A stretch of DNA of 64,000 bases from an uncultured delta proteobacterium (GCA_963766715.1 CAVYBH010000012.1:160001-224000), one strand, 5' to 3'; positions 31,657 through 42,525 are shown, counted from the stretch's first letter. Notes: generated by a model from the letters alone, not told the origin. Numbers and translations are program-made.

Positions 31657-34656
31657 TTGCCTTCCGTCACGCGCATCGAGGTCGGGACCCGTCCCGGCTT
31701 CACAGACAGCCTGGGTAGCTCCGTCGCCCGCCGGATCAAGGAACACCTCGGGCTCGCCCCCGGGCGGGTCCGGACCCGGGACGTCTTCCACGTCGAGGCC
31801 GCGCTCTCCCCGGCGGAATCCGAGGCGGTGGCCCGGGAGTTCGCCGGCCCGATCGTGCGCCAGGGCGCCGTGGGACGCCTCGACGACGGCCCGTTCGGCG
31901 TCGCCGTCTCGGTGGGCTACAAGCCGGGCGTCACCGACCCGGTCGCGAAGAGCGCCCGGGTGGCGATCGAGGACCTGCTCGGCCGTCCCCTGGGCGAGGG
32001 CGCCCACGTCTACACCTCGCGCCTCTACCTGCTCGACGGCGTCTCGGAGGCGGAGGCCGGGCGCATCGCCCGGGCGCTGCTCGCCAACGAGGTCATCGAG
32101 CGGGTGGGCGTGCAGTCGTACGCGCAGTGGAGCGCGTCCCCGCCCGACCTCTCGGTGCCGCGGGTGGCGGAGCATGCCGCCCGGCCGGTCGAGACGGTGA
32201 GCCTGGAGCTCTCCGACGACGCGCTCCAGGCGCTCTCGCGCGAGCGGCTGCTCGCCCTGTCGCTCGAGGAGATGCGGACGCTGCGCGACTTCTACCGCGC
32301 CGCCGGGATCCGACCCGGTGCGCCGCGCCGCCGGGCTGGGCGCGTCGCCCACCGACGTCGAGCTGGAGTGCCTGGCCCAGACCTGGTCGGAGCACTGCAA
32401 GCACAAGATCATGAACGCGGTCATCTCCTACCGGGAGGAGGGCCGTCCCCCGGAGGAGATCCGGTCCATCTTCAAGACCTTCATCCGCGGCACCACCGAG
32501 GCGGTCGACCAGGCCATCCAGGCACGCGAGGGCAAGAGCTGGCTCGTCTCGGTCTTCCACGACAACGCGGGCGTCATCGCGGCCACCGACCGCTACCACC
32601 TCGTCTACAAGGTCGAGACCCACAACAGCCCCTCGGCCCTCGACCCGTACGGCGGCGCCATCACCGGCATCGTCGGCGTGAATCGCGATCCCTTCGGCAC
32701 GGGGATGGGCGCCGACCTCCTCTCGAACACCTGGGGCTACTGCTTCGGCCCCCCGGAGTGGTCCGCGGAGTTGCCCCCGGGCCTCCTGCACCCGCGCCGC
32801 ATCCGGGACGGCGTGCACTCCGGCGTGATCGACGGCGGCAACCAGTCGGGCATTCCCTACGCCCGTGGCTGGGAGTTCTTCGACGAGCGCTTCCTCGGGA
32901 AGCCGCTCGTCTACTGCGGCACGGTGGGCCGCATGCCGGTCACCATCGCCGGCGCGCCGGGGGAGCAGAAGCACGCCCGGGCCGGCGACCGCATCGTGAT
33001 GGTGGGTGGACGCATCGGCAAGGACGGGATCCACGGCGCCACGTTCTCGTCCGCGGAGCTGACCGAGGAGAGCCCGGTCCAGGCCGTGCAGATCGGCGAT
33101 CCCATCACCCAGAAGATGATGTTCGACTTCCTCCTCGAGGCCCGGGAGCGCGGCCTCTACTCGGCCATCACCGACAACGGGGCGGGCGGCCTGTCGTCGT
33201 CGGTGGGCGAGATGGGGAAGCAGCCCGGTGGCGCCCGGCTCGACCTGGCGCTGGCGCCTCTCAAGTACCAGGGCCTGGCTCCCTGGGAGATCCTGGTCTC
33301 CGAGGCCCAGGAGCGCATGACGGTGGCGGTGCGCCCGGAGAAGCTCCCCGAGTTCCTCGAACTGGCGCGGCTGCGCGAGGTGGAGGCCACCGATCTGGGC
33401 GAGTTCACCACCGAGCCCCTCTTCCACCTGCTCCACGCCGGGCGGACGGTGGGGCTCATCCCCATGGCGTTCCTCCACGACGGGGATCCGGAGATGCGGA
33501 TCGTCGCGGAGTGGAAGGAGCCCGCGATCTCGGCGTTCCCGGCCACCCCGGTCCCGGGCGGCCGACGAGGGGAACGCCCTCGCCCGGGCCCTGCTCGGCC
33601 GCGACAACCTGCGTTCGTCCGAGGACCTCGACGCGCACCTACGATCACGAGGTGAAGGCGCTCACCGTGGTGAAGCCCTGGATCGGAGCCTCCCGCGACG
33701 TGCCGGCCGACGCGGCCGTGCTCCAGATCGCCCACGACGGTGGCCACGTCGGGTACGCGCTCGGCGAGGCCGTCTTCCCGACCTACTCCGACCAGGACGC
33801 CCACGCCATGGCCCAGGCCGGCGTGGACCTCGCGGTCCGGCGCGTGGTGGCCGCCGGGGCCCGCCTCGACCGGATCGCGCTGCTCGACAACTACTGCTGG
33901 CCCGATCCGCTCGAGGGGCCGAAGAACCCCGACGCGCGCCACAAGGCGGCCCAGCTCGTCCGCGCCTCCCGCGGTCTCTCCGAGATTTGCCGCGCCTACG
34001 GGGCCCCGCTCATCTCGGGCAAGGACTCGATGAAGAACGATGCGGTGGTGGGCGGGAAGCGCATCTCCATCCCGCCCACGCTGCTGGCGTCCGCCATCGC
34101 CATCGTCCCCGACGTCCGCAAGGCGCTGACCCTCGAGGCCTCCGGTCCGGGCGAGGTGCTGTTCCTCGTGGGCGAGACCGGCGACGAGCTGGGGTGCTCC
34201 GAGTACGCCGCGCTGCGCGGAACCGCCGGCGGGCTCGTGCCCCGCTGTCATCCGGAGGCCTTCCACGCGCGCTACCGCCGGGCGTCCCGGGCCATCGCCG
34301 AGGGGCTCGTCACCGCGGCCCACGCACCGGGACGCGGAGGCCTGCTCGTGTCCCTGTTCTTCCTCGCCCGGGCCGCGGGGCTCGGGCTCGACGTCGATCT
34401 CTCCCGGGTCCCGACCTCGGGGTCGCCGGGCTGGGAGGCTCTCCTCTTCGGCGAGTCGGCCGGCCGGCTGCTGCTGGCGGTGAAGCCGGGACAGGTGGCC
34501 GAGTTCACCCGCCGGCTCGAGGGCGAGCCGGTGGCGCGGCTCGGAACCTACGGTCCGGGCAGCCGGCTGCGCATCTCCCTCGGCGGCCGCGCGGTCGTCG
34601 ACGAGGACGTCGACGAGCTGGCGCGCGCCTGGAAGCGGGAAGGGGGTCGCGCGTGA
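31657..34656 (+). CDS. purL: FGAM synthase PurL with fused N-terminal PurS-like region (frameshifts ~32320 and ~33570-33635)
   Basis: PGVTDP, QTWSEHCKHK, KVETHNSPS, DGIHGATFSS, DNGAGGLSSS, SEAQERM, ISGKDS, LFGESAGR. Confidence 0.93.
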   Translation: MPSVTRIEVGTRPGFTDSLGSSVARRIKEHLGLAPGRVRTRDVFHVEAALSPAESEAVAREFAGPIVRQGAVGRLDDGPFGVAVSVGYKPGVTDPVAKSARVAIEDLLGRPLGEGAHVYTSRLYLLDGVSEAEAGRIARALLANEVIERVGVQSYAQWSASPPDLSVPRVAEHAARPVETVSLELSDDALQALSRERLLALSLEEMRTLRDFYRAAGIRPGAPRRRAGRVAHRRRAGVPGPDLVGALQAQDHERGHLLPGGGPSPGGDPVHLQDLHPRHHRGGRPGHPGTRGQELARLGLPRQRGRHRGHRPLPPRLQGRDPQQPLGPRPVRRRHHRHRRRESRSLRHGDGRRPPLEHLGLLLRPPGVVRGVAPGPPAPAPHPGRRALRRDRRRQPVGHSLRPWLGVLRRALPREAARLLRHGGPHAGHHRRRAGGAEARPGRRPHRDGGWTHRQGRDPRRHVLVRGADRGEPGPGRADRRSHHPEDDVRLPPRGPGARPLLGHHRQRGGRPVVVGGRDGEAARWRPARPGAGASQVPGPGSLGDPGLRGPGAHDGGGAPGEAPRVPRTGAAARGGGHRSGRVHHRAPLPPAPRRADGGAHPHGVPPRRGSGDADRRGVEGARDLGVPGHPGPGRPTRGTPSPGPCSAATTCVRPRTSTRTYDHEVKALTVVKPWIGASRDVPADAAVLQIAHDGGHVGYALGEAVFPTYSDQDAHAMAQAGVDLAVRRVVAAGARLDRIALLDNYCWPDPLEGPKNPDARHKAAQLVRASRGLSEICRAYGAPLISGKDSMKNDAVVGGKRISIPPTLLASAIAIVPDVRKALTLEASGPGEVLFLVGETGDELGCSEYAALRGTAGGLVPRCHPEAFHARYRRASRAIAEGLVTAAHAPGRGGLLVSLFFLARAAGLGLDVDLSRVPTSGSPGWEALLFGESAGRLLLAVKPGQVAEFTRRLEGEPVARLGTYGPGSRLRISLGGRAVVDEDVDELARAWKREGGRA

Positions 34657-35454
34657 AGACCGTTCGCGTGCTCGTCCCCGTCGGGTTCGGCCTCAACTGC
34701 GAGGACGAGACCGCCCATGCCTTCCGCCTGGTGGGGGCCGAGGTCGACCTCGTCCATCTCACCGATCTCTTCGCCCGCCGCCACCCGCGCCGCATCGCCG
34801 ACTACCAGGTGCTCGCCATGGTGGGCGGCTTCTCCTACGGCGACCACGTCGCCGGCGGGCTGGTGCTCGCCACCCGCATCCGCGCCCACCTGAAGGACGA
34901 CCTGGGCGCCTTCCTGTCCGGCGGGGGCAGGGTGCTCGGCATCTGCAACGGGTTCCAGGCCCTCACCCGGCTCGGGCTCCTGCCCGGACCGGAGGCCGGC
35001 GCGCCGGACTTCACGCCCCGTGCGACGCTCACGAACAACGAGCGGCAGGGGTACCGGGACTGCTGGGTCCGGGTCGCGCCGGATCCCGGGAGCCACTGCG
35101 TCTGGACGAAGGGGCTCTCCGCCGTGGACCTGCCTTCCCGCCACGGCGAGGGGCGGTTCGTCGCCGAGTCGGACGAGGCGCTCCGCCGCCTCGATGCCGG
35201 CGGGCGGCTGCCGCTTCGCTACGTCGACGCGCGAGGGGAAGATCGCGGAGCGCTGGCCGGAGAACCCCAACGGCTCCGCGCTGGGCGTGGCCGGGGTCTG
35301 CGACGCCACCGGGCGCATCCTCGGGCTCATGCCGCACCCGGATGCCTTCCTGTACCCCTGGCATCACCCCGACTGGCCGCGCCGGCGCCGGGAGCTCGAG
35401 GCGATCGAGGCGGGCGGACTCGGGTTCTTCCGGGCGGGCGTGGAGGGAGTCTGA
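34653..35454 (+). CDS. purQ: FGAM synthase glutaminase subunit (frameshift ~35238)
   Basis: GFGLNCEDET, GGFSYGD, GICNGFQ, HGEGRF, NPNGS, GLMPHPD. Confidence 0.93.
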
Positions 35455-36729
35455 TGGGCGGCCGGGGGCGACTCCTGCTGCTCGTGCCCACGCAGAGCTA
35501 CCGCGCCGAGGACTTCCAGGCCGCGGCGGCCCGGCTCGGCGTCGAGGTGGTGGTGGGCACGGACCGGTGCCATCGCATCGAGGACGCGTTCGGGCCGAGC
35601 GAGGGGTTGCTGTCGCTCGACTACCGGAAGCCGGAGGCGGCGGCCGAGGAGATCGGCCGCGAGGCCGCCGCGCGCGAGATCGCCGGCATCGTCCCCGTCG
35701 ACGACGGGACCGCGGTGATCGCGGCGCTCGCCGCCGAACGGCTCGGACTGCCGCGCAACCCGCCCGCCGCGGCCCGGCGAACGGCCAACAAGCTCTCCCA
35801 GCGGCAGGCGCTCCAGGCTGCCGGGGTCCCGGTGCCGCGCTTCCAGGCCTTCCCGCTCGCCGGAGGCCCGGACGGCCCGGCCGCCGGCGTCGGGTATCCC
35901 TGCGTCCTGAAGCCCCTCGGCCTGTCGGCCAGCCGGGGCGTCATCCGCGCCGACGACCCGTCCTCCTTCCGGGAGGCCTGGACGCGCATCGTCGCCATCC
36001 TCGCCTCGGCCCGCAGCGAGCGAAAGGCCCGGGAGGAGGGGGCCGGAAGCCAGCTCCTCGTCGAGGACTTCGTGCCCGGGCCCGAGGTCGCGCTGGAGGG
36101 GCTCCTGCGGGGCGGCCGCCTCGAGGTGCTGGCCCTCTTCGACAAGCCCGACCCGCTCGACGGGCCGTTCTTCGAGGAGACGATCTACGTGACGCCGTCC
36201 CGCCATCCCGCCGCGGCGCAGGCCGAGGTCGAGCGGGTCATCGGCGCGGCCGCGGAGGCGCTGGGACTCCGCGAGGGGCCGGTTCACGCCGAGGCCAGGC
36301 TGGGTCCTTCGGGTCCGGTGGTGCTGGAGGTGGCGGCCCGGACCATCGGCGGGCTCTGCGCGCGGGCGCTCCGCTTCGGGACCGGCGCGTCCCTCGAGGA
36401 GCTGGTGGTCGCGCACGCCATGGGGCTGCCGCTGGCCTCGGTCCGCAGGGAGTCGCAGGCCTCGGGCGTGATGATGCTCCCCATCCCGAGGCGCGGCGTC
36501 CTCCACGGGGTGGCCGGCGTCGCCGCGGCCCGGGAGGTGGCCGGGGTCGAAGGACGTGGTGATCACCGTCCCGGAGGGGCGCGAGGTGGTGCCCCTGCCG
36601 GAGGGGGACGCCTACCTGGGCTTCCTCTTCGCGCGCGGCAAGACGCCCGAGGGGGTGGAGTCCGCGCTGCGCGAGGCCCACCGGAGGCTGTCGTTCGACA
36701 TCCGGGCGCCGCTCCCCACGATCGGCTAG
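35454..36729 (+). CDS. ATP-grasp ligase (L-amino-acid-ligase-like; frameshift ~36550)
   Basis: NKLSQRQAL, YPCVLKPLGLSASRGVIRAD, LVEDFVPGPEVALEG, HAEAR, LEVAARTIGG; YLGFLFARG in the next frame. Confidence 0.88.
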
Positions 36730-36739
36730 GGCCGGCGCG

Positions 36740-38155
36740 TCACTTCGGGTCGAGCGGGGCCACCTGCCCCGCGGTGGGCTCCGCTCAACAGAACCAGTTC
36801 TCGGTGAGCCGGGGCGTCCCGGCCGTGGAGAACGGGCGGGCCACGTGGGAGTGGGTCCGGCCGGCGGCCGCGAGCGCGAGCGCCTTCACCCGGGCCATCG
36901 TCGCCTGCGCATCCTCCCCCCGCGTGGCCGCGGCGTCCACGACGGCGGCGACGCGGGACTGGAGCGCGTCCATCCGCGGATCGGGGTGGCGCCAGCGCCA
37001 GCTGAGCGCCGCCTCGTCGAGCTCCTCGAGCCGCAGCCCGGGGTCGTCGAGGAGCAGCGACCCCGGAGGAACGAGGAGGCGCAGCGAGAGCTGGACCGGG
37101 TCGATCCGCTCCAGCCAGCCCTGCTGCTCGAAGGTCTCGAGGACGTCGAGGTAGCCCTCCAGCGTCTCCCAGGGGGTGAAGGGCACCAGGGTGGGCCGGA
37201 GCGGCAGTCCGGCCCGGTCGCACAGCTCGAAGGCCCGGAAGACGTCGTGGCGGGTGTGACCCTTCGCGAGCCTGGCCAGCACGAGGTCGGAGAGCGACTC
37301 GACGGCGGTGACCGCGAAGGCGGCTCCGGAGGCGACGAGCTCCGGGAGCACGTCCTCGTCCCGGACGAGGTGCTCCACCTTGGCGGTGAAGTCGAAGGTG
37401 AGGGCCGGGAAGCGCCGGTGGAGCTCGCGTGCGATCCGGAGCGCGTGGACCGGCCCGTTCAGGAAGTCGGGGTCGCCGAAGGTGACGTGGGTGACGCCGG
37501 CGCTGACCTGCTGCTCCACGTCGGCGAGCACCGTCTCCGCGGGGACGGCGAAGAAGCGCCCGTCGTACACCGCCGGGATGGGGCAATGGCGGCAGCGGTG
37601 CAGGCAGCCGCGGGTCGTCTCGGCGTAGCCGGCCAGCCGCTCCCGGCCGTCCGGCTCGCGCAGGCGGGCATAGCGCTCGGGAGCGGGCAGGCCCTCCCGC
37701 CGGGGGACCGGAAAGTCGAGCCGCCGGAGCGAGGCGGCGCTCCCGCCGCGCTGGACGAAGCGGGAGAGATCGTCTCCCCGCTCGAGCGCCCCGGCGAGCG
37801 CCACCAGCTCCTCCTCGCACTCCCCGCCGAGCACCGCCGACGCGCCGGCCTCGAGCAGGAGGGGAGCGTGGAGCGGAGCGTACGTTCCGTGAAAGGCGAG
37901 GACCGCGCCGGGATGGAGGGCCCGGATGCGAGCGGCGGCGTCCAGGCCGAGCCGCAGCGCGGTGTGCATGGGGACGGAGACGGCGACCAGCCGGGCCCGG
38001 CGCACCCGTCCGGCGTCGAGCGGCTCCACGGCCAGGTCGAGCGTGGAGGGGCGAAACCCGGCGCGCGACAGGAACGCCAACGGGACCGCGATGCCCTGCG
38101 GCTGGTGACCCAGCTCGTAGGTGGAGACGAGGAGGATCTCTCCCTCGCCCCGCAT
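36740..38155 (-). CDS. CUAEP-tail radical SAM selenoprotein (Sec encoded by TGA at 36787-36785)
   Basis: RGCLHRCRHC CxxxCxxC motif, N-terminal cobalamin-binding-like domain; C-terminus reads WF-C-TGA-AEPTAGQVAPLDPK-TGA. Confidence 0.9.
36754..36772 (-). promoter_or_regulatory. Bacterial SECIS-like hairpin
   Basis: GCGGGGC-AGGTG-GCCCCGC, a perfect 7-bp stem starting 12 nt after the in-frame TGA, with G early in the apical loop. Confidence 0.75.
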
Positions 38156-38162
38156 GACCGGC

Positions 38163-38441
38163 CTAGCCCTTGCGAGGAGGCGGGACGTAGTCCGGCGGGA
38201 GCTGGGCGCCCGCGCCGAAGAAGAACTGCTCCGCCTGCTGGAAGAGGATCTGGTTCGTCTTCGGGTCGCCCGGGGCGAGGCGGTACTCGTTCAGGATCAT
38301 CTTGAAGTGCTCGAGCCACATCTTCCAGGCCTCCTGGGAGATGGAGTCGAAGATGCGCTGGCCGAGCTCGTTCGGGAAGGGCTTGAAGGCCATTCCCGGG
38401 AGTTCCTTTCCGAGCTTCTTGCAGTGGACCGTACGAGCCAT
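38163..38441 (-). CDS. yggX: Fe(II)-trafficking / oxidative damage protection protein
   Basis: [50 protein letters not shown]. Confidence 0.93.
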
Positions 38442-38532
38442 CGGGGGAGCTCTCCTGTGGGCGAGGAAGAGGAGATAAGCGAGACGCCCGCCGCTTGCAC
38501 GACGGGCGCCGCGGGTCCTGCCTGGAAGCCGG

Positions 38533-38766
38533 TCAGGAGATGAGCGAGGCGGGGCTCACGCCGAGCGCCTTGGAAAGCGACTCGAGGGTGTCGAGGGGCG
38601 GCGTGCGCTGCCCGCGCTCCAGCATCGAGATGTAGGACACGGAGAGGCCGGCCTTGCCGGCCAGGGTCTCCTGGGACAGCTTCCGGCGCAGTCGCTCGGA
38701 CTTGAGGTTGGCGGCGAACTTGTCGGAGAGCGATGCGCTGCGGCGGTTCTTGGAGGGATTTGCCAT
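38533..38766 (-). CDS. XRE family HTH regulator
   Basis: [32 protein letters not shown]. Confidence 0.88.
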
Positions 38767-38869
38767 GGCCTGTCTGTACCTGGGAGTCTTTCCGGAAGAG
38801 TGAGTGGATACGCGGTTTTCTAACATCGCCTTCACCCCGGGGCGAGAAAAACGGATAGCCCGAACGGGG

Positions 38870-40085
38870 CTACCCGGACGGAGCGCGAACCAGGATGGCG
38901 TCCACCATCTGTCCGCGGCGAATCCGCGCCGGTCCGGCGGGCAGGACGGCCAGCGCGTCGACCCCCACCACCGACGTGAGGTGACCGCTCTGCTGCGTCC
39001 GCAGCGGGTCTACCCAGAGTGAACCGGCCTCGCGGCGGACCTTGCACCGCAGGAAGACGGTGAGCTCGGGGGGCTTCTCCTCGGCCTCCCCGAGGCGCGC
39101 CCGCAGGAGCATGCGACCGCTTCCCTGGAGTCCGGCCAGCGCCCGGAGCGCGGGGCGGACGAAGAGCTCGAAGGTGACGAGCGAGCTGGCCGGGTTGCCG
39201 GGCAGCCCGAAGACGGCCATCGTTCCCCAGCGTCCGAAGGCCACCGGCTTGCCCGGACGCATGGCCACGCGCCAGAAGTCGAGGCGGGCGCCGGAGCCGG
39301 CGAGCCCGGCCCGCACCAGGTCGCGGTCGCCGACCGAGACCCCGCCGATGGAGACGAGCGCATCGAGCCCGCGCGCCGCGGCGAGCGAGCGGCGCAGCGA
39401 GGCCCGATCGTCGCCGGCGAGCGGGAGGCGGAAGGGAACCGCCCCGGCCTCGACGCAGGCGGCGGCGAGCTGGTGGCCGTTCGACTCGAAGATCTGCCCC
39501 GGGCCCGGCACGGACCCCAGGGGGACGATCTCGTCGCCCGTGGCGAGGATGCCCACGCGGGGCCTGCGCCGCACCGCGAGCTCGGAGCGCCCGAGCGCCG
39601 CGGCGAGCCCGATGGCGCCCGCGTCCACCTCGAGGCCGGCCCGGAGCGCGACGCTCCCCGGCGCGACGTCGGCCCCCGCCGGACGGACGTAGCGCCCCGC
39701 GATGCCCGGCCGCCGGAAGCGCGCCACGCCGCCCTTCCGGGAGACCTCCTCCTGCATCTCCACGCAGTCGGCGCCCGGGGGCAAGCGGCGCGCCGGTGAA
39801 GATGCGCGCGCACGACCCTGGCGGGAGCACGCGACCGCGGTCGTCCCCGGCGAAGACCTCGAAGGCCACCGGGAGGCGCGCCCCGGCGCGCGGCGCGTCG
39901 ACGGCTCGAAGCGCGTACCCGTCCATCTGCGAGTTGTCGAAGGGCGGGAGCGGCCGCTCGGCCCGGACGTCCTCGGCGAGGGCTCGCCCCAGGGCATCCG
40001 AGAGGGGCACCCGCTCGGCCGGGAGGGGGGCGACGGCGTCGAGAGAGCCGAGGATGCGCTGCAGGGCTTCGGTGGGCGAGAGCAC
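38870..40085 (-). CDS. moeA: Molybdopterin molybdotransferase (frameshift ~39785)
   Basis: PPFDNSQMDGYA, RIFTGAP, PGADCVEMQE, ATGDEI, GGVSVGD, MRPGKP, GLPGNP. Confidence 0.93.
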
Positions 40086-40130: not shown

Positions 40131-42525
40131 ATGCCCCAACGCCCTCTTCCCGACGTGCGACCCGAGGCGCTGCTCGCCGAGTTGCGCCTCGCCGGAGGGC
40201 GGGCCCTCTCGCTCCCCGACCTGCTCCAGCGCGCCCACCTGCACCCGCGTAGCCTGCGGGACGCGAAGAAGGTGATGAAGAAGCTGGTCCGGGACGGGAC
40301 GGTGCAGGAGGCCGGGAGCCGGTTCGTGCTGGCCTCCGCGGCGACTCCGGGGTCCGGATCGGGGCCTCGCGGGCGCCGCGAGCGGGGAGGGCGCGAGGGC
40401 GCGCCGGCCCCAGGGTGCGGATCGCCGCGTCCTGCAGGGCGGCAAGGGGCTCGTCGGGCTCTACACCCGGCACCGCGACGGCTTCGGCTTCCTGGCCCGG
40501 CTCGATCGGCAGGGGCCCGACCTCTTCGTCGCTCCCGGCGACGGGGGCAAGGCGGTGGACGGCGACGTCGTCCGCTTCGAGATCTTCCCCGGCCGCCGCG
40601 GCGAGCAGGGGCGGGTCACCGAGGTGCTGGAGCGCGGGCGGCGGATGCTGCTCGGCGCCTACGCGGCGCGCGGGCAGGACAGCTTCGTCGTCCCCCTCGA
40701 CGAGCAGCTTCCGCCCACCGTGCCGGTTCCGGAGACGCGGCTCGTCAAGAACGGCGAGGTCGCGAAGGTCTGGCTCGACGCCGGCCAGGGGCCTCTCGCC
40801 GGGCGCGTGGTCGACCGCATCCCGAACCCGCAGGCGCCCTCGGTCGAGGTGCTCCGCGCGGCCTACGCCCACGGCTTCGCCGACGTCTTCCCGGAGGACG
40901 TCCTCGCCGAGGCGGAGGCCACGCCCGACCGGGTGCGGAAGGAGGACTGGGAGGGGCGGCGCGACCTCACCGGGATCCCGCTCGTCACCATCGACGGGGA
41001 GGATGCGCGCGACTTCGACGACGCGGTCTTCGTCGAGAAGCTCCCCGGCCGCGGCTACCGGCTGGTCGTGGCCATCGCCGACGTGTCGCACTACGTCCGC
41101 CCGGGCCGCCCCCTCGACGCAGAGGCCCTGCGCCGCGGGACCAGCGTGTACTTCCCGGGCACCGTGCTGCCCATGCTCCCGGAGCGGCTCTCGAACGGCG
41201 TCTGCTCGCTCAACCCGGAGGTCGAGCGGCTCTGCATGGTCGCCGACATGCGCTTCGACGCCGCCGGGACCCCCGGCATGGTCGAGGTCTATCCGGCGGT
41301 GATGCGGTCCGTCGCGCGCTGCACCTACACCGAGGTGGCGCGCATGCTCGACGGGGAGCGCGTCCCGCACCGCGAGTTCCTGCGGGACGACTTCGTCCGC
41401 ATGGGCGAGCTGCAGGAGATCCTGGGCGGCGTCCGCCGCCGGCGCGGCTCCATCGACTTCGATCTCCCCGAGTCGAAGATCGTCCTCGGCGAGGACGGCA
41501 AGGTGCTCGCCATCGAGCGGCGCCCGCGCAACCGCGCCCACCGCGTCGTCGAGGAGTTCATGCTCGCCGCCAACGAGGCCGTGGCCCGCTGGTTCGGGGA
41601 GCGCGACCTGCCCACCATCTACCGGGTCCACGGGCTGCCCGACGAGGACAAGCTCCAGACCTTCCTCGACCTGGCGCAGGCCCAGGGGTTCGAGGTGCCG
41701 GAGGTCGGCGCCGGGCCGCTGGCGCTCGCCAACCTGCTCGACCGGCTGGCCGGCCATCCCCAGCAGCGCGCCCTCAACCAGCTCCTGCTGCGGGCCATGA
41801 TGCAGGCGGTCTACAGCCCGGAGAACATCGGCCACTACGGCCTGGCCGCGGTCCACTACCTGCACTTCACCTCGCCCATCCGGCGCTACCCCGACCTGGT
41901 CGTCCACCGGCTGCTCCGCGACGCGCTCGGCGAGGATCCCGCCCGCCGCCCGCGGGCGGGCGAGCTGGAGCGCATCGCCATGGTCGCCTCCGACCGGGAG
42001 CGCGCCGCCATGAAGTCCGAGCGGGACGTGAACGCCTACTACGCCACGCTCTTCATGGCCGATCGGATCGGCGAGCGCAGCCCGGGCACCGTCTCGGCGG
42101 TCGTGGAGTTCGGCATCTTCGTCTCCATGCACCGCTGGTTCGTCGAGGGGCTCGTGAAGACCGAGGACCTCGGCGACGGGTTCGTCTTCGACAAGGACGG
42201 TCACGCGCTGGTCGAGAAGCACAGCGGGCGAGCCTACCGGGTGGGAGACGAGATCGAGGTCCAGGTCTCGGCTGCCGAGCCGGCCCGTCGCCGGATCGAT
42301 CTCCTGCTCGTCGAGGGCGGCGAGACCCGGGAGGCCGTGCCGGCCCGGAACCTCGGGAAGCGGCTCCTGCAGGAGAAGGCGCGGCGCGGCCGCGGGGAGG
42401 GGTCCGGCAAGCAGTCCCGTCCGGCGAAGCCGGGCAAGGGCGGCAAGCCGGGCAAGCGGGACGCCTCCGGAGGCAAGCCGCGGAATGGCGGGAAGGCCCA
42501 GCGGTCGAAGAAGCGCCGGCGGTAG
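40131..42525 (+). CDS. rnr: Ribonuclease R (frameshift(s) ~40340-40440)
   Basis: HRDGFGF, TIDGEDARDFDDA, AIADVSHYV, EEFMLAANEAVA, HFTSPIRRYPDL, S1 domain, basic tail. Confidence 0.93.

Follow-up and report, generated by a model that had tools for sequence, protein, structure and literature searches.

The closest described relative of the system treated here is ArsL, a radical S-adenosylmethionine (SAM) enzyme that is responsible for the carbon-arsenic bond in arsinothricin. As set out in the available portions of two reports, ArsL cleaves SAM to methylthioadenosine and a 3-amino-3-carboxypropyl radical, and adds this radical to arsenite that is bound by the three cysteines of an RCCLKC tail (10.1101/2024.02.01.577332; 10.64898/2026.04.29.721666). 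The available part of one of these describes the non-canonical cleavage as an outlier among radical SAM enzymes, despite the canonical cluster motif of ArsL (10.64898/2026.04.29.721666). A second radical SAM family, with a CUAEP or CCAEP tail in which U stands for selenocysteine (Sec), is named in NCBIfam as NF040546 and is termed uncharacterised in the available text of a 2022 preprint by Haft, the sole paper found to name it in a search that left subscription journals and supplements outside its reach (10.1101/2022.07.06.499078). The same text records that the Cys-Sec (CU) dipeptide occurs mainly in metal-handling proteins, and that NF040546 is among the few families with this motif (10.1101/2022.07.06.499078). 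Here we describe a member of NF040546 encoded in a stretch of 64,000 nucleotides from an uncultured delta proteobacterium (GCA_963766715.1 CAVYBH010000012.1:160001-224000; the whole of this stretch is called the window), together with the genes that accompany it. The locus represents a biosynthetic module that is widespread and uncharacterised and that has two enzymes at its base, the radical SAM enzyme and an ATP-grasp ligase that resembles L-amino acid ligases.

The original prediction for this DNA had joined the radical SAM gene, the ligase gene and the neighbouring yggX gene in a single pathway. That interpretation is partly supported by the present analysis: the layout of the genes, the co-occurrence of ligase and radical SAM enzyme and the kinship with ArsL all stand, while the link of the ligase to purQ and a dedicated role for YggX do not. 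The prediction had also taken the CUAEP/CCAEP family to be without established function, in agreement with the available text of the one paper found to name it (10.1101/2022.07.06.499078).

A predicted selenoprotein and sister of ArsL

When read with translation table 11, the open reading frame (ORF) of the radical SAM gene halts at an in-frame TGA (36785-36787) directly after ...TENWFC. Readthrough of this codon yields U-AEPTAGQVAPLDPK and ends at a second TGA. The resulting protein scores 653.5 bits on the NF040546 model (cut-off 500), matching model positions 1-467 of 468 with the tail included; the score in the genome-wide search was 646.9 bits. The Radical_SAM domain PF04055 is matched at 55.4 bits, and the three cysteines of the cluster motif, C184-X3-C188-X2-C191, are invariant in the family alignment. 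The C-terminal motif of the family, W-F/Y-C-U/C-A/S-E-P, is present as ...TENWFCUAEPT..., and within it C456 is invariant in the same alignment, with E452 and W454 nearly so.

The codon at the Sec site was compared in 121 loci. It is TGA in 101 of them, while 12 have TGC or TGT; in the remaining 8 loci, which were truncated or unmatched, the motif was not found. The residues that follow the Sec site, AEPT.GQ[LF], are kept across phyla, and those beyond the AEP motif vary in length and sequence. A single in-frame TGA is found in 44 of the 46 Myxococcota matches to the radical SAM enzyme. A hairpin resembling a selenocysteine insertion sequence (SECIS) begins 14 nt after the UGA, and in an alignment of 33 sequences from about 10 phyla 84.8% of its cells pair. 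Changes on both sides of the stem occur in 41 cells, compared to 15.7 in shuffled alignments, and none of 500 shuffles reached 41; controls in which the position was slid all fell below the observed pairing. The fold energy of the hairpin as a single sequence is no better than that of shuffles (z -0.23) in this DNA of 72% G+C, and no Rfam family matched it in a scan of 35000-39500 at E up to 1. The source genome carries a tRNA-Sec gene (C12:514470-514565) along with selA, selB and selD. Because the hairpin covaries, orthologs have cysteine at the same site and the Sec machinery is present in the genome, the in-frame TGA is, as judged from the sequence, decoded as selenocysteine through SECIS-directed reading of UGA.

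Two other observations concern the Sec machinery itself. The selD gene (C9:55113-55955; 362.9 bits on TIGR00476) contains one in-frame TGA, and its product is probably a selenoprotein here as well. ARAGORN reported an extra 99-nt tRNA with a four-base anticodon (atca) and no assigned identity at C11:135346-135444, which could be a second tRNA-Sec-like gene carrying an indel error.

The resemblance to ArsL that had been proposed was checked by model score and by alignment. On the ArsL model NF040542 the enzyme scores 275.9 bits over positions 1-411 of 423, under the cut-off of 450, and all other named families give 43 bits or less. Over 415 residues it shares 33% identity with the protein P0275, which itself reaches 437.7 bits on the ArsL model, just under the cut-off; the proteins P0251 and P0257 from the same search pass it. 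Members of the two families reach 276-362 bits on each other's model. Since two defining features of ArsL, a score above the cut-off and the RCCLKC tail, are absent, the tail reading FCUAEP instead, the enzyme is classed by its sequence as a full member of NF040546, and as a sister of ArsL rather than an ArsL.

A ligase subfamily that travels with the radical SAM enzyme

The second enzyme of the module has the domain set of an ATP-grasp amino acid ligase, with matches to PF13535 (98 bits) and PF18130 (42 bits) in its N-terminal and central part and to PF18603 (34 bits) in its C-terminal part. A profile built from its orthologs matches, over the full length, the L-amino acid ligase BL00235 (PDB 3VOT), the closest solved relative, at E 5e-67 and BacD/YwfE (3VMM) at about E 2e-30; similarity to LysX or RimK is at E 1e-4 or weaker. 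No NCBIfam equivalog model passes its cut-off for this protein. The subfamily is distinct and tightly conserved, with a mean column identity of 58% over six phyla. According to a table in the available part of a review, BL00235 takes methionine as its first substrate, and Met-Gly and Met-Met are given as products (PMC6920838).

The distribution of the two genes was compared in sets of genomes. In a sample of 301 Myxococcota genomes, the radical SAM enzyme (counted when over the model cut-off) occurs in 46, the ligase ortholog (best E 3e-88 or lower) in 46, and both in 45, while 254 have neither; the ligase matches of another 15 genomes are distant paralogs only (E 1e-58 to 1e-41). Among 151 sampled Acidobacteriota genomes the corresponding numbers are 23, 27, 22 and 123, so that the radical SAM enzyme is found in about 15% of the sampled genomes of either phylum. 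Elsewhere, 31 genomes of other phyla (one of them, G315, unpublished) showed no ligase beside the radical SAM gene, and 29 of these have a ligase match at another place in the genome, full-length and above 530 bits in 25 cases and partial or frameshifted in four. Absence is shared too: in one genus of the window's family the radical SAM gene is missing from all seven genomes and the ligase from six. The co-occurrence that had been expected is thus borne out in 45 of the 46 Myxococcota and 22 of the 23 Acidobacteriota carriers of the radical SAM enzyme, and the pattern repeats in separate families and phyla. The ligase subfamily is a near-obligate genomic partner of the radical SAM enzyme, and is almost unseen in genomes that lack it.

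The two genes are also frequently neighbours. In Myxococcota, 33 of 40 radical SAM loci have the ligase within the flanks that were fetched. The corresponding counts are 36 of 77 for non-duplicate genome loci from many phyla and 32 of 80 for metagenome loci; restriction to loci with 3 kb or more on each side gives 24 of 43 (genomes) and 15 of 20 (metagenomes). Adjacency is seen in six named phyla and in one locus of doubtful label, and the gene order differs among them. The genes converge in Myxococcota and Chloroflexota; the ligase is upstream on the same strand in Blastocatellia, whereas Methylomirabilota, Planctomycetota and Nitrospirota have it downstream, again on the same strand. A further order, seen in at least 25 metagenome loci, has the radical SAM gene followed by the ligase on the same strand and then by yggX on the opposite strand. 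Among cultured bacteria, Thermogemmatispora carboxidivorans PM5 (locus L075) has a convergent ligase and an upstream yggX. That linkage survives rearrangement into four arrangements argues that the two enzymes share a function. In the neighbourhoods of unlinked ligase copies no gene is conserved across phyla.

One predicted protein of 850 residues, P0235, has the ligase domains and a CCAAP-tail radical SAM enzyme in a single frame with a short linker; it is a singleton from one NCBI contig of 16 kb. Three other candidate fusions, P0276 (AMP-binding plus radical SAM), P0277 and P0278, were rejected as frameshift read-throughs, on account of arginine-rich junctions that look out of frame.

Iron-sulfur helpers and other neighbours

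Partners of the module were sought by de novo clustering of the 4161 ORFs that lie within 6 kb of the radical SAM gene in 88 loci. Beside the radical SAM enzyme and the ligase, only YggX, Nfu and a DUF169 protein recurred in more than one phylum. Clusters c16, c18, 1, 2, 5, 6 and others were discarded as partners, because their ORFs are antisense shadows of the genes for the radical SAM enzyme, the ligase, Nfu or the formyltransferase. ArsM and ArsQ were not among the recurrent partners in this clustering, and no search by those names was made.

The YggX protein of the window is above the cut-offs of both NF003817 (124.3 bits, cut-off 74) and PF04362 (122.7 bits, cut-off 27), and its N-terminal C7 is invariant in the YggX alignment. 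Of 40 Myxococcota loci, 38 have yggX directly upstream of the radical SAM gene on the same strand, as do 19 of the 22 loci from Chloroflexota; in the 88-locus clustering this position was found in 34 loci, all of them from these two phyla. In Acidobacteriota, Methylomirabilota, Planctomycetota and Nitrospirota the gene immediately downstream of the radical SAM gene encodes Nfu or a bare NifU domain. Nfu with both its domains (Nfu_N and NifU) was found in 15 loci, and a bare NifU domain of 99 residues in 5 Methylomirabilota loci, where it is the product of the small ORF between the radical SAM gene and the ligase. As Nfu takes the place of YggX beside the radical SAM gene in these phyla, the enzyme would appear to have a recurrent need for a supply of iron or of iron-sulfur (Fe-S) clusters.

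Other neighbours are more restricted. A DUF169 gene stands beside the radical SAM gene in 10 loci of Nitrospirota, Planctomycetota and Poribacteria (L119, L127, L134, L141, L090, L128, L140 and others). In Nitrospina, according to a figure legend in the available part of one report, a DUF169 gene has an HgcA-like gene and MerR as its neighbours (10.1101/648329). In 13 Chloroflexota loci, and in no other phylum, the divergent gene upstream of yggX (e.g. L106:4898-5857, minus strand) encodes a formyltransferase paralog that reaches 110 bits on the Fmt model (cut-off 201.5). An Atg22-like transporter beside the module is confined to Blastocatellia.

The locus in the window and the broken ligase frame

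The window belongs to contig C12 of a metagenome-assembled genome (MAG) of 18 contigs, 4.2 Mb and 72% G+C, which is 84.6% complete and has Anaeromyxobacteraceae as its nearest named relatives. The features of the locus are collected in Table 1.

Table 1. Features of the radical SAM-ligase locus, with positions counted from the first letter of the window
Feature	Position	Strand	Basis or detail
yggX, 92 aa	38163-38441	-	NF003817 and PF04362; TAG at 38163-38165
CUAEP-tail radical SAM predicted selenoprotein, 471 aa with TGA read as Sec	36740-38155	-	NF040546; translation
CX3CX2C motif (C184, C188, C191), predicted radical SAM [4Fe-4S] cluster site	37583-37606	-	GCLHRCRHCP
In-frame TGA, predicted Sec (U457), tail WFC-U-AEP	36785-36787	-	Codon position compared in 121 loci
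SECIS-like hairpin, 7-bp stem, 5-nt loop AGGUG	36754-36772	-	Covariation in alignment
ATP-grasp L-amino-acid-ligase-type gene, N-terminal and central part, 367 aa	35454-36555	+	PF13535, PF18130
ATP-grasp ligase C-terminal part, 57 aa, LAL_C2, other frame	36556-36729	+	PF18603
Ligase frame break, one surplus base relative to four same-genus relatives	36545-36556	+	Alignment to relatives

The spacings given in the original prediction were recovered when the coordinates were re-read from the sequence. Seven nucleotides separate the TAG of yggX from the ATG of the radical SAM gene (38153-38155) on the same strand, and 10 nt separate the convergent ends of the ligase (TAG at 36727-36729) and of the radical SAM gene, whose true stop is the TGA at 36740-36742. 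At its other end, the ligase ATG (35454-35456) shares one base with the TGA of purQ (35452-35454). The predicted coupling to purQ is therefore real at this locus in the sense of a one-base overlap, but it does not extend to a general link: purL-purQ adjoins the ligase in 7 loci including the window, all of them from the window's genus or one sister genus. Farther upstream of yggX, a small XRE-type helix-turn-helix gene (38533-38835, minus strand), conserved in this position within the window's family only, lies between yggX and a terminator-like hairpin with a T run (38852-38876, minus strand) that is downstream of moeA.

The ligase gene is present and convergent as described, but a break in its reading frame near 36548 had been overlooked. 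The frame switches at about 36551-36556 into that of the second piece listed in Table 1, and four same-genus relatives lack one base near 36548. As a result, the ATPgrasp_N, ATP-grasp_4 and LAL_C2 domains are all present here but over two frames, whereas in relatives the N- and C-terminal parts are continuous in one frame and form one polypeptide. In the family alignment the pieces join without gap or overlap, and 64 of 64 invariant columns are retained. Breaks of this kind recur in the assembly. Compared with an intact same-genus ortholog, purL has two frame changes and RNase R one; purQ is also in two frames, with the junction near 35239, and selA and selB are in pieces elsewhere in the same MAG. 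The gene regions broken in this way are 31657-35454 and 40131-42525 in the window, and C15:338055-339981 and C15:349417-350803 in the rest of the genome. Four public metagenome runs gave only short contigs of relatives, none of which spans 36551 with the indel; among the public sequencing runs the largest share of sampled words in any one run was 0.31, and none of the runs listed as sharing such words was of RNA. Because purL, RNase R, selA and selB are likewise broken in this MAG, and because every invariant ligase column is retained, the frame break is most likely an assembly indel, as far as can be judged from the sequence. In an assembly that looks so prone to indels, single frame breaks should not be taken as marks of pseudogenes.

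A proposed pathway and its alternatives

The pathway that we propose is one in which every chemical step is inferred. The radical SAM enzyme would cleave SAM reductively at its C-gamma-S bond, as ArsL does, to give methylthioadenosine and a 3-amino-3-carboxypropyl radical. A soft heteroatom or metal(loid) substrate would be held for attack by this radical on the Cys-Sec (or Cys-Cys) dyad of the flexible C-terminus, and the product would be a methionine-like 2-amino-4-X-butanoate. The ligase would then condense this product with a second amino acid to form a dipeptide, and YggX or Nfu would keep the [4Fe-4S] cluster of the radical SAM enzyme loaded or repaired. As a whole, from aminocarboxypropyl transfer on the dyad through dipeptide ligation to cluster service by YggX or Nfu, this reading is put forward tentatively, with a likelihood that we judge to be somewhat short of even. 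A Sec-dependent sister of ArsL, spread over at least 10 phyla, that bonds carbon to a heteroatom or metal(loid) held by its own Cys-Sec tail, hands the product to a ligase for conversion to a dipeptide, and has an Fe-S cluster consumed or damaged at each turnover that the adjacent Nfu or YggX may rebuild, is a picture that we consider doubtful.

Three observations bear on organometallic chemistry. P0131, a predicted protein of 695 residues, joins a CCAEP-tail radical SAM enzyme through a proline-rich linker to a domain that resembles MerB (alkylmercury lyase) and contains a C-x-x-D motif. It is a singleton from one JGI/IMG contig of 8.3 kb; this contig was not recovered in the metagenome scan, where the best match had 72% identity and covered the radical SAM part only, and no MerB-like gene was found in any fetched locus or in the source genome. 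Along with the figure legend that sets DUF169 beside an HgcA-like gene and the remark on CU motifs in metal-handling proteins, P0131 is a hint of organometallic chemistry, and these three are taken as hints only.

A number of points weigh against the proposed pathway. Identity of 33% to ArsL is, for a comparison of sequences, no proof of ArsL-type cleavage of SAM, and the tail offers two thiol or selenol ligands, not the three arsenite-binding cysteines of ArsL. The similarity of the ligase to BL00235 is moderate (230 bits), a level from which substrate choice in this family is not predictable, and the fused form of the two enzymes is a single sequence. No arsenic, selenium or other metal(loid) gene recurs beside the module in the 88-locus clustering, nor does a methyltransferase or a conserved exporter, and all five Gemmatimonadota loci are without a partner gene in their flanks. 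The co-occurrence itself has exceptions: one in each direction in Myxococcota (G203 and G276, fragmented assemblies of 730 and 460 contigs), and in Acidobacteriota five genomes with the ligase and no detected radical SAM enzyme (one of these, G355, is unpublished) and one with the reverse; furthermore, related genomes are not independent samples. In this strain the broken frame could mean that the ligase is a very recent pseudogene. Finally, YggX is present in 131 of the 301 Myxococcota genomes, far more than carry the radical SAM enzyme, and in all seven genomes of the genus that lacks that enzyme. The prediction that YggX is part of the module thus stands as to its place directly upstream of the radical SAM gene and falls as to dedication, Nfu being found instead in other phyla; YggX is at most a shared helper.

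The alternative that survives best keeps the module but changes the chemistry. The radical SAM enzyme would generate a 5'-deoxyadenosyl radical, which would act on the product of the ligase (a dipeptide or an acylated amino acid) or on another small molecule, and the Cys-Sec dyad would be a redox pair, supplying electrons or quenching a radical, rather than a substrate site. Thioredoxin reductase, which ends in Gly-Cys-Sec-Gly, provides the redox comparison. The canonical CX3CX2C motif and Radical_SAM domain fit this alternative, as do the tail with only two chalcogen ligands, the replacement of Sec by Cys in 12 of 113 scored loci (as is common with redox-active Sec) and the lack of recurrent metal(loid) genes nearby. 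ArsL-type cleavage is, moreover, termed an outlier among radical SAM enzymes in the available part of the report cited above (10.64898/2026.04.29.721666). Nevertheless, ArsL is by a wide margin the nearest characterised relative (276 bits versus 43 or less), the vicinal dyad is carried on a C-terminal tail just as in ArsL, and the CU dipeptide is seen mainly in metal-handling proteins, according to the available text on that motif (10.1101/2022.07.06.499078). We consider deoxyadenosyl chemistry unlikely on balance.

In a second alternative the aminocarboxypropyl group, or another radical product, would be attached to the Cys-Sec tail of the enzyme itself or to a substrate protein, and the ATP-grasp enzyme would ligate an amino acid to the tethered group. 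The model would be LysX and RimK, which are carrier-protein ligases, and the ligase does match the LysX and RimK models weakly; it is, however, far nearer to the ligases of free amino acids (E 5e-67 for BL00235 and 2e-30 for BacD, against 1e-4 or weaker). The position of the dyad on a flexible tail would suit such a modification, yet the residues after AEP are variable in length and sequence. Likewise, the predicted in-frame fusion P0235, and the finding of neither a conserved exporter nor a further tailoring enzyme in the 88-locus clustering, would be natural for a tethered product, but a small conserved substrate protein is absent from the cluster, the small ORF of Methylomirabilota being a NifU domain. 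Modification of the tail or of a protein therefore appears improbable. As for mere local synteny, with the ligase belonging to a purL-purQ purine operon and the radical SAM gene and yggX forming a separate unit, the overlap of the ligase start with the purQ stop and the convergence of the two units would allow it, but with purL-purQ beside the ligase in so few loci and so few genera, and the ligase tracking the radical SAM gene across phyla in both genome content and position, it is essentially excluded.

Significance and comparison with known systems

An association of the ligase, YggX or Nfu with this radical SAM family was not found in print, in a search that did not extend to subscription journals and supplements. 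The system described here resembles that of ArsL and departs from it in its tail, its selenocysteine and its ligase partner. The family is the much larger sister of ArsL. It is common among bacteria from soil, sediment and freshwater in many phyla, and most of its members use selenocysteine; with a near-obligate ligase partner and an Fe-S helper that recurs beside it, this orphan family gains a defined two-enzyme pathway that can be tested. If the proposed pathway is true, radical SAM chemistry would gain a new type of reaction and selenocysteine a new role, and the products would probably form a new family of natural products or cofactors. The more doubtful picture given above, of bond formation on the Cys-Sec tail followed by ligation, would imply a whole class of organo-chalcogen or organometal(loid) metabolites, so far unseen, among soil bacteria.

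CU selenoproteins such as HgcA, the MerB-like protein of the SAO locus and MerT variants also carry adjacent Cys and Sec residues close to their C-termini, but their folds are unrelated to radical SAM; P0131, a single predicted protein, is the one direct link to them that was seen. The ligase has, here spread over two frames, the same set of ATPgrasp_N, ATP-grasp_4 and LAL_C2 domains as BL00235 and BacD, and methionine, the substrate of BL00235, has the carbon skeleton of an aminocarboxypropyl adduct; it differs from both in forming a separate subfamily that travels with a radical SAM enzyme. The helper genes call to mind NfuA, which rebuilds the sacrificed cluster of lipoyl synthase. The likeness is one of gene position, a gene for a small iron or Fe-S carrier directly beside a radical SAM gene, and YggX is a general protein of these genomes.

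With ArsL of the arsQML arsinothricin cluster there are both parallels and differences. Both enzymes have an N-terminal Rossmann-like domain, a CX3CX2C core and a C-terminal extension with vicinal cysteines, which here are Cys-Sec or Cys-Cys. The tails themselves differ, W-F-C-U/C-A-E-P with two chalcogen ligands in NF040546 and R-C-C-L-K-C with three in ArsL, and the family described here is usually a selenoprotein. Its partners are an L-amino-acid ligase together with YggX or Nfu, and it extends across many phyla, reaching about 15% of the Myxococcota and Acidobacteriota genomes sampled.

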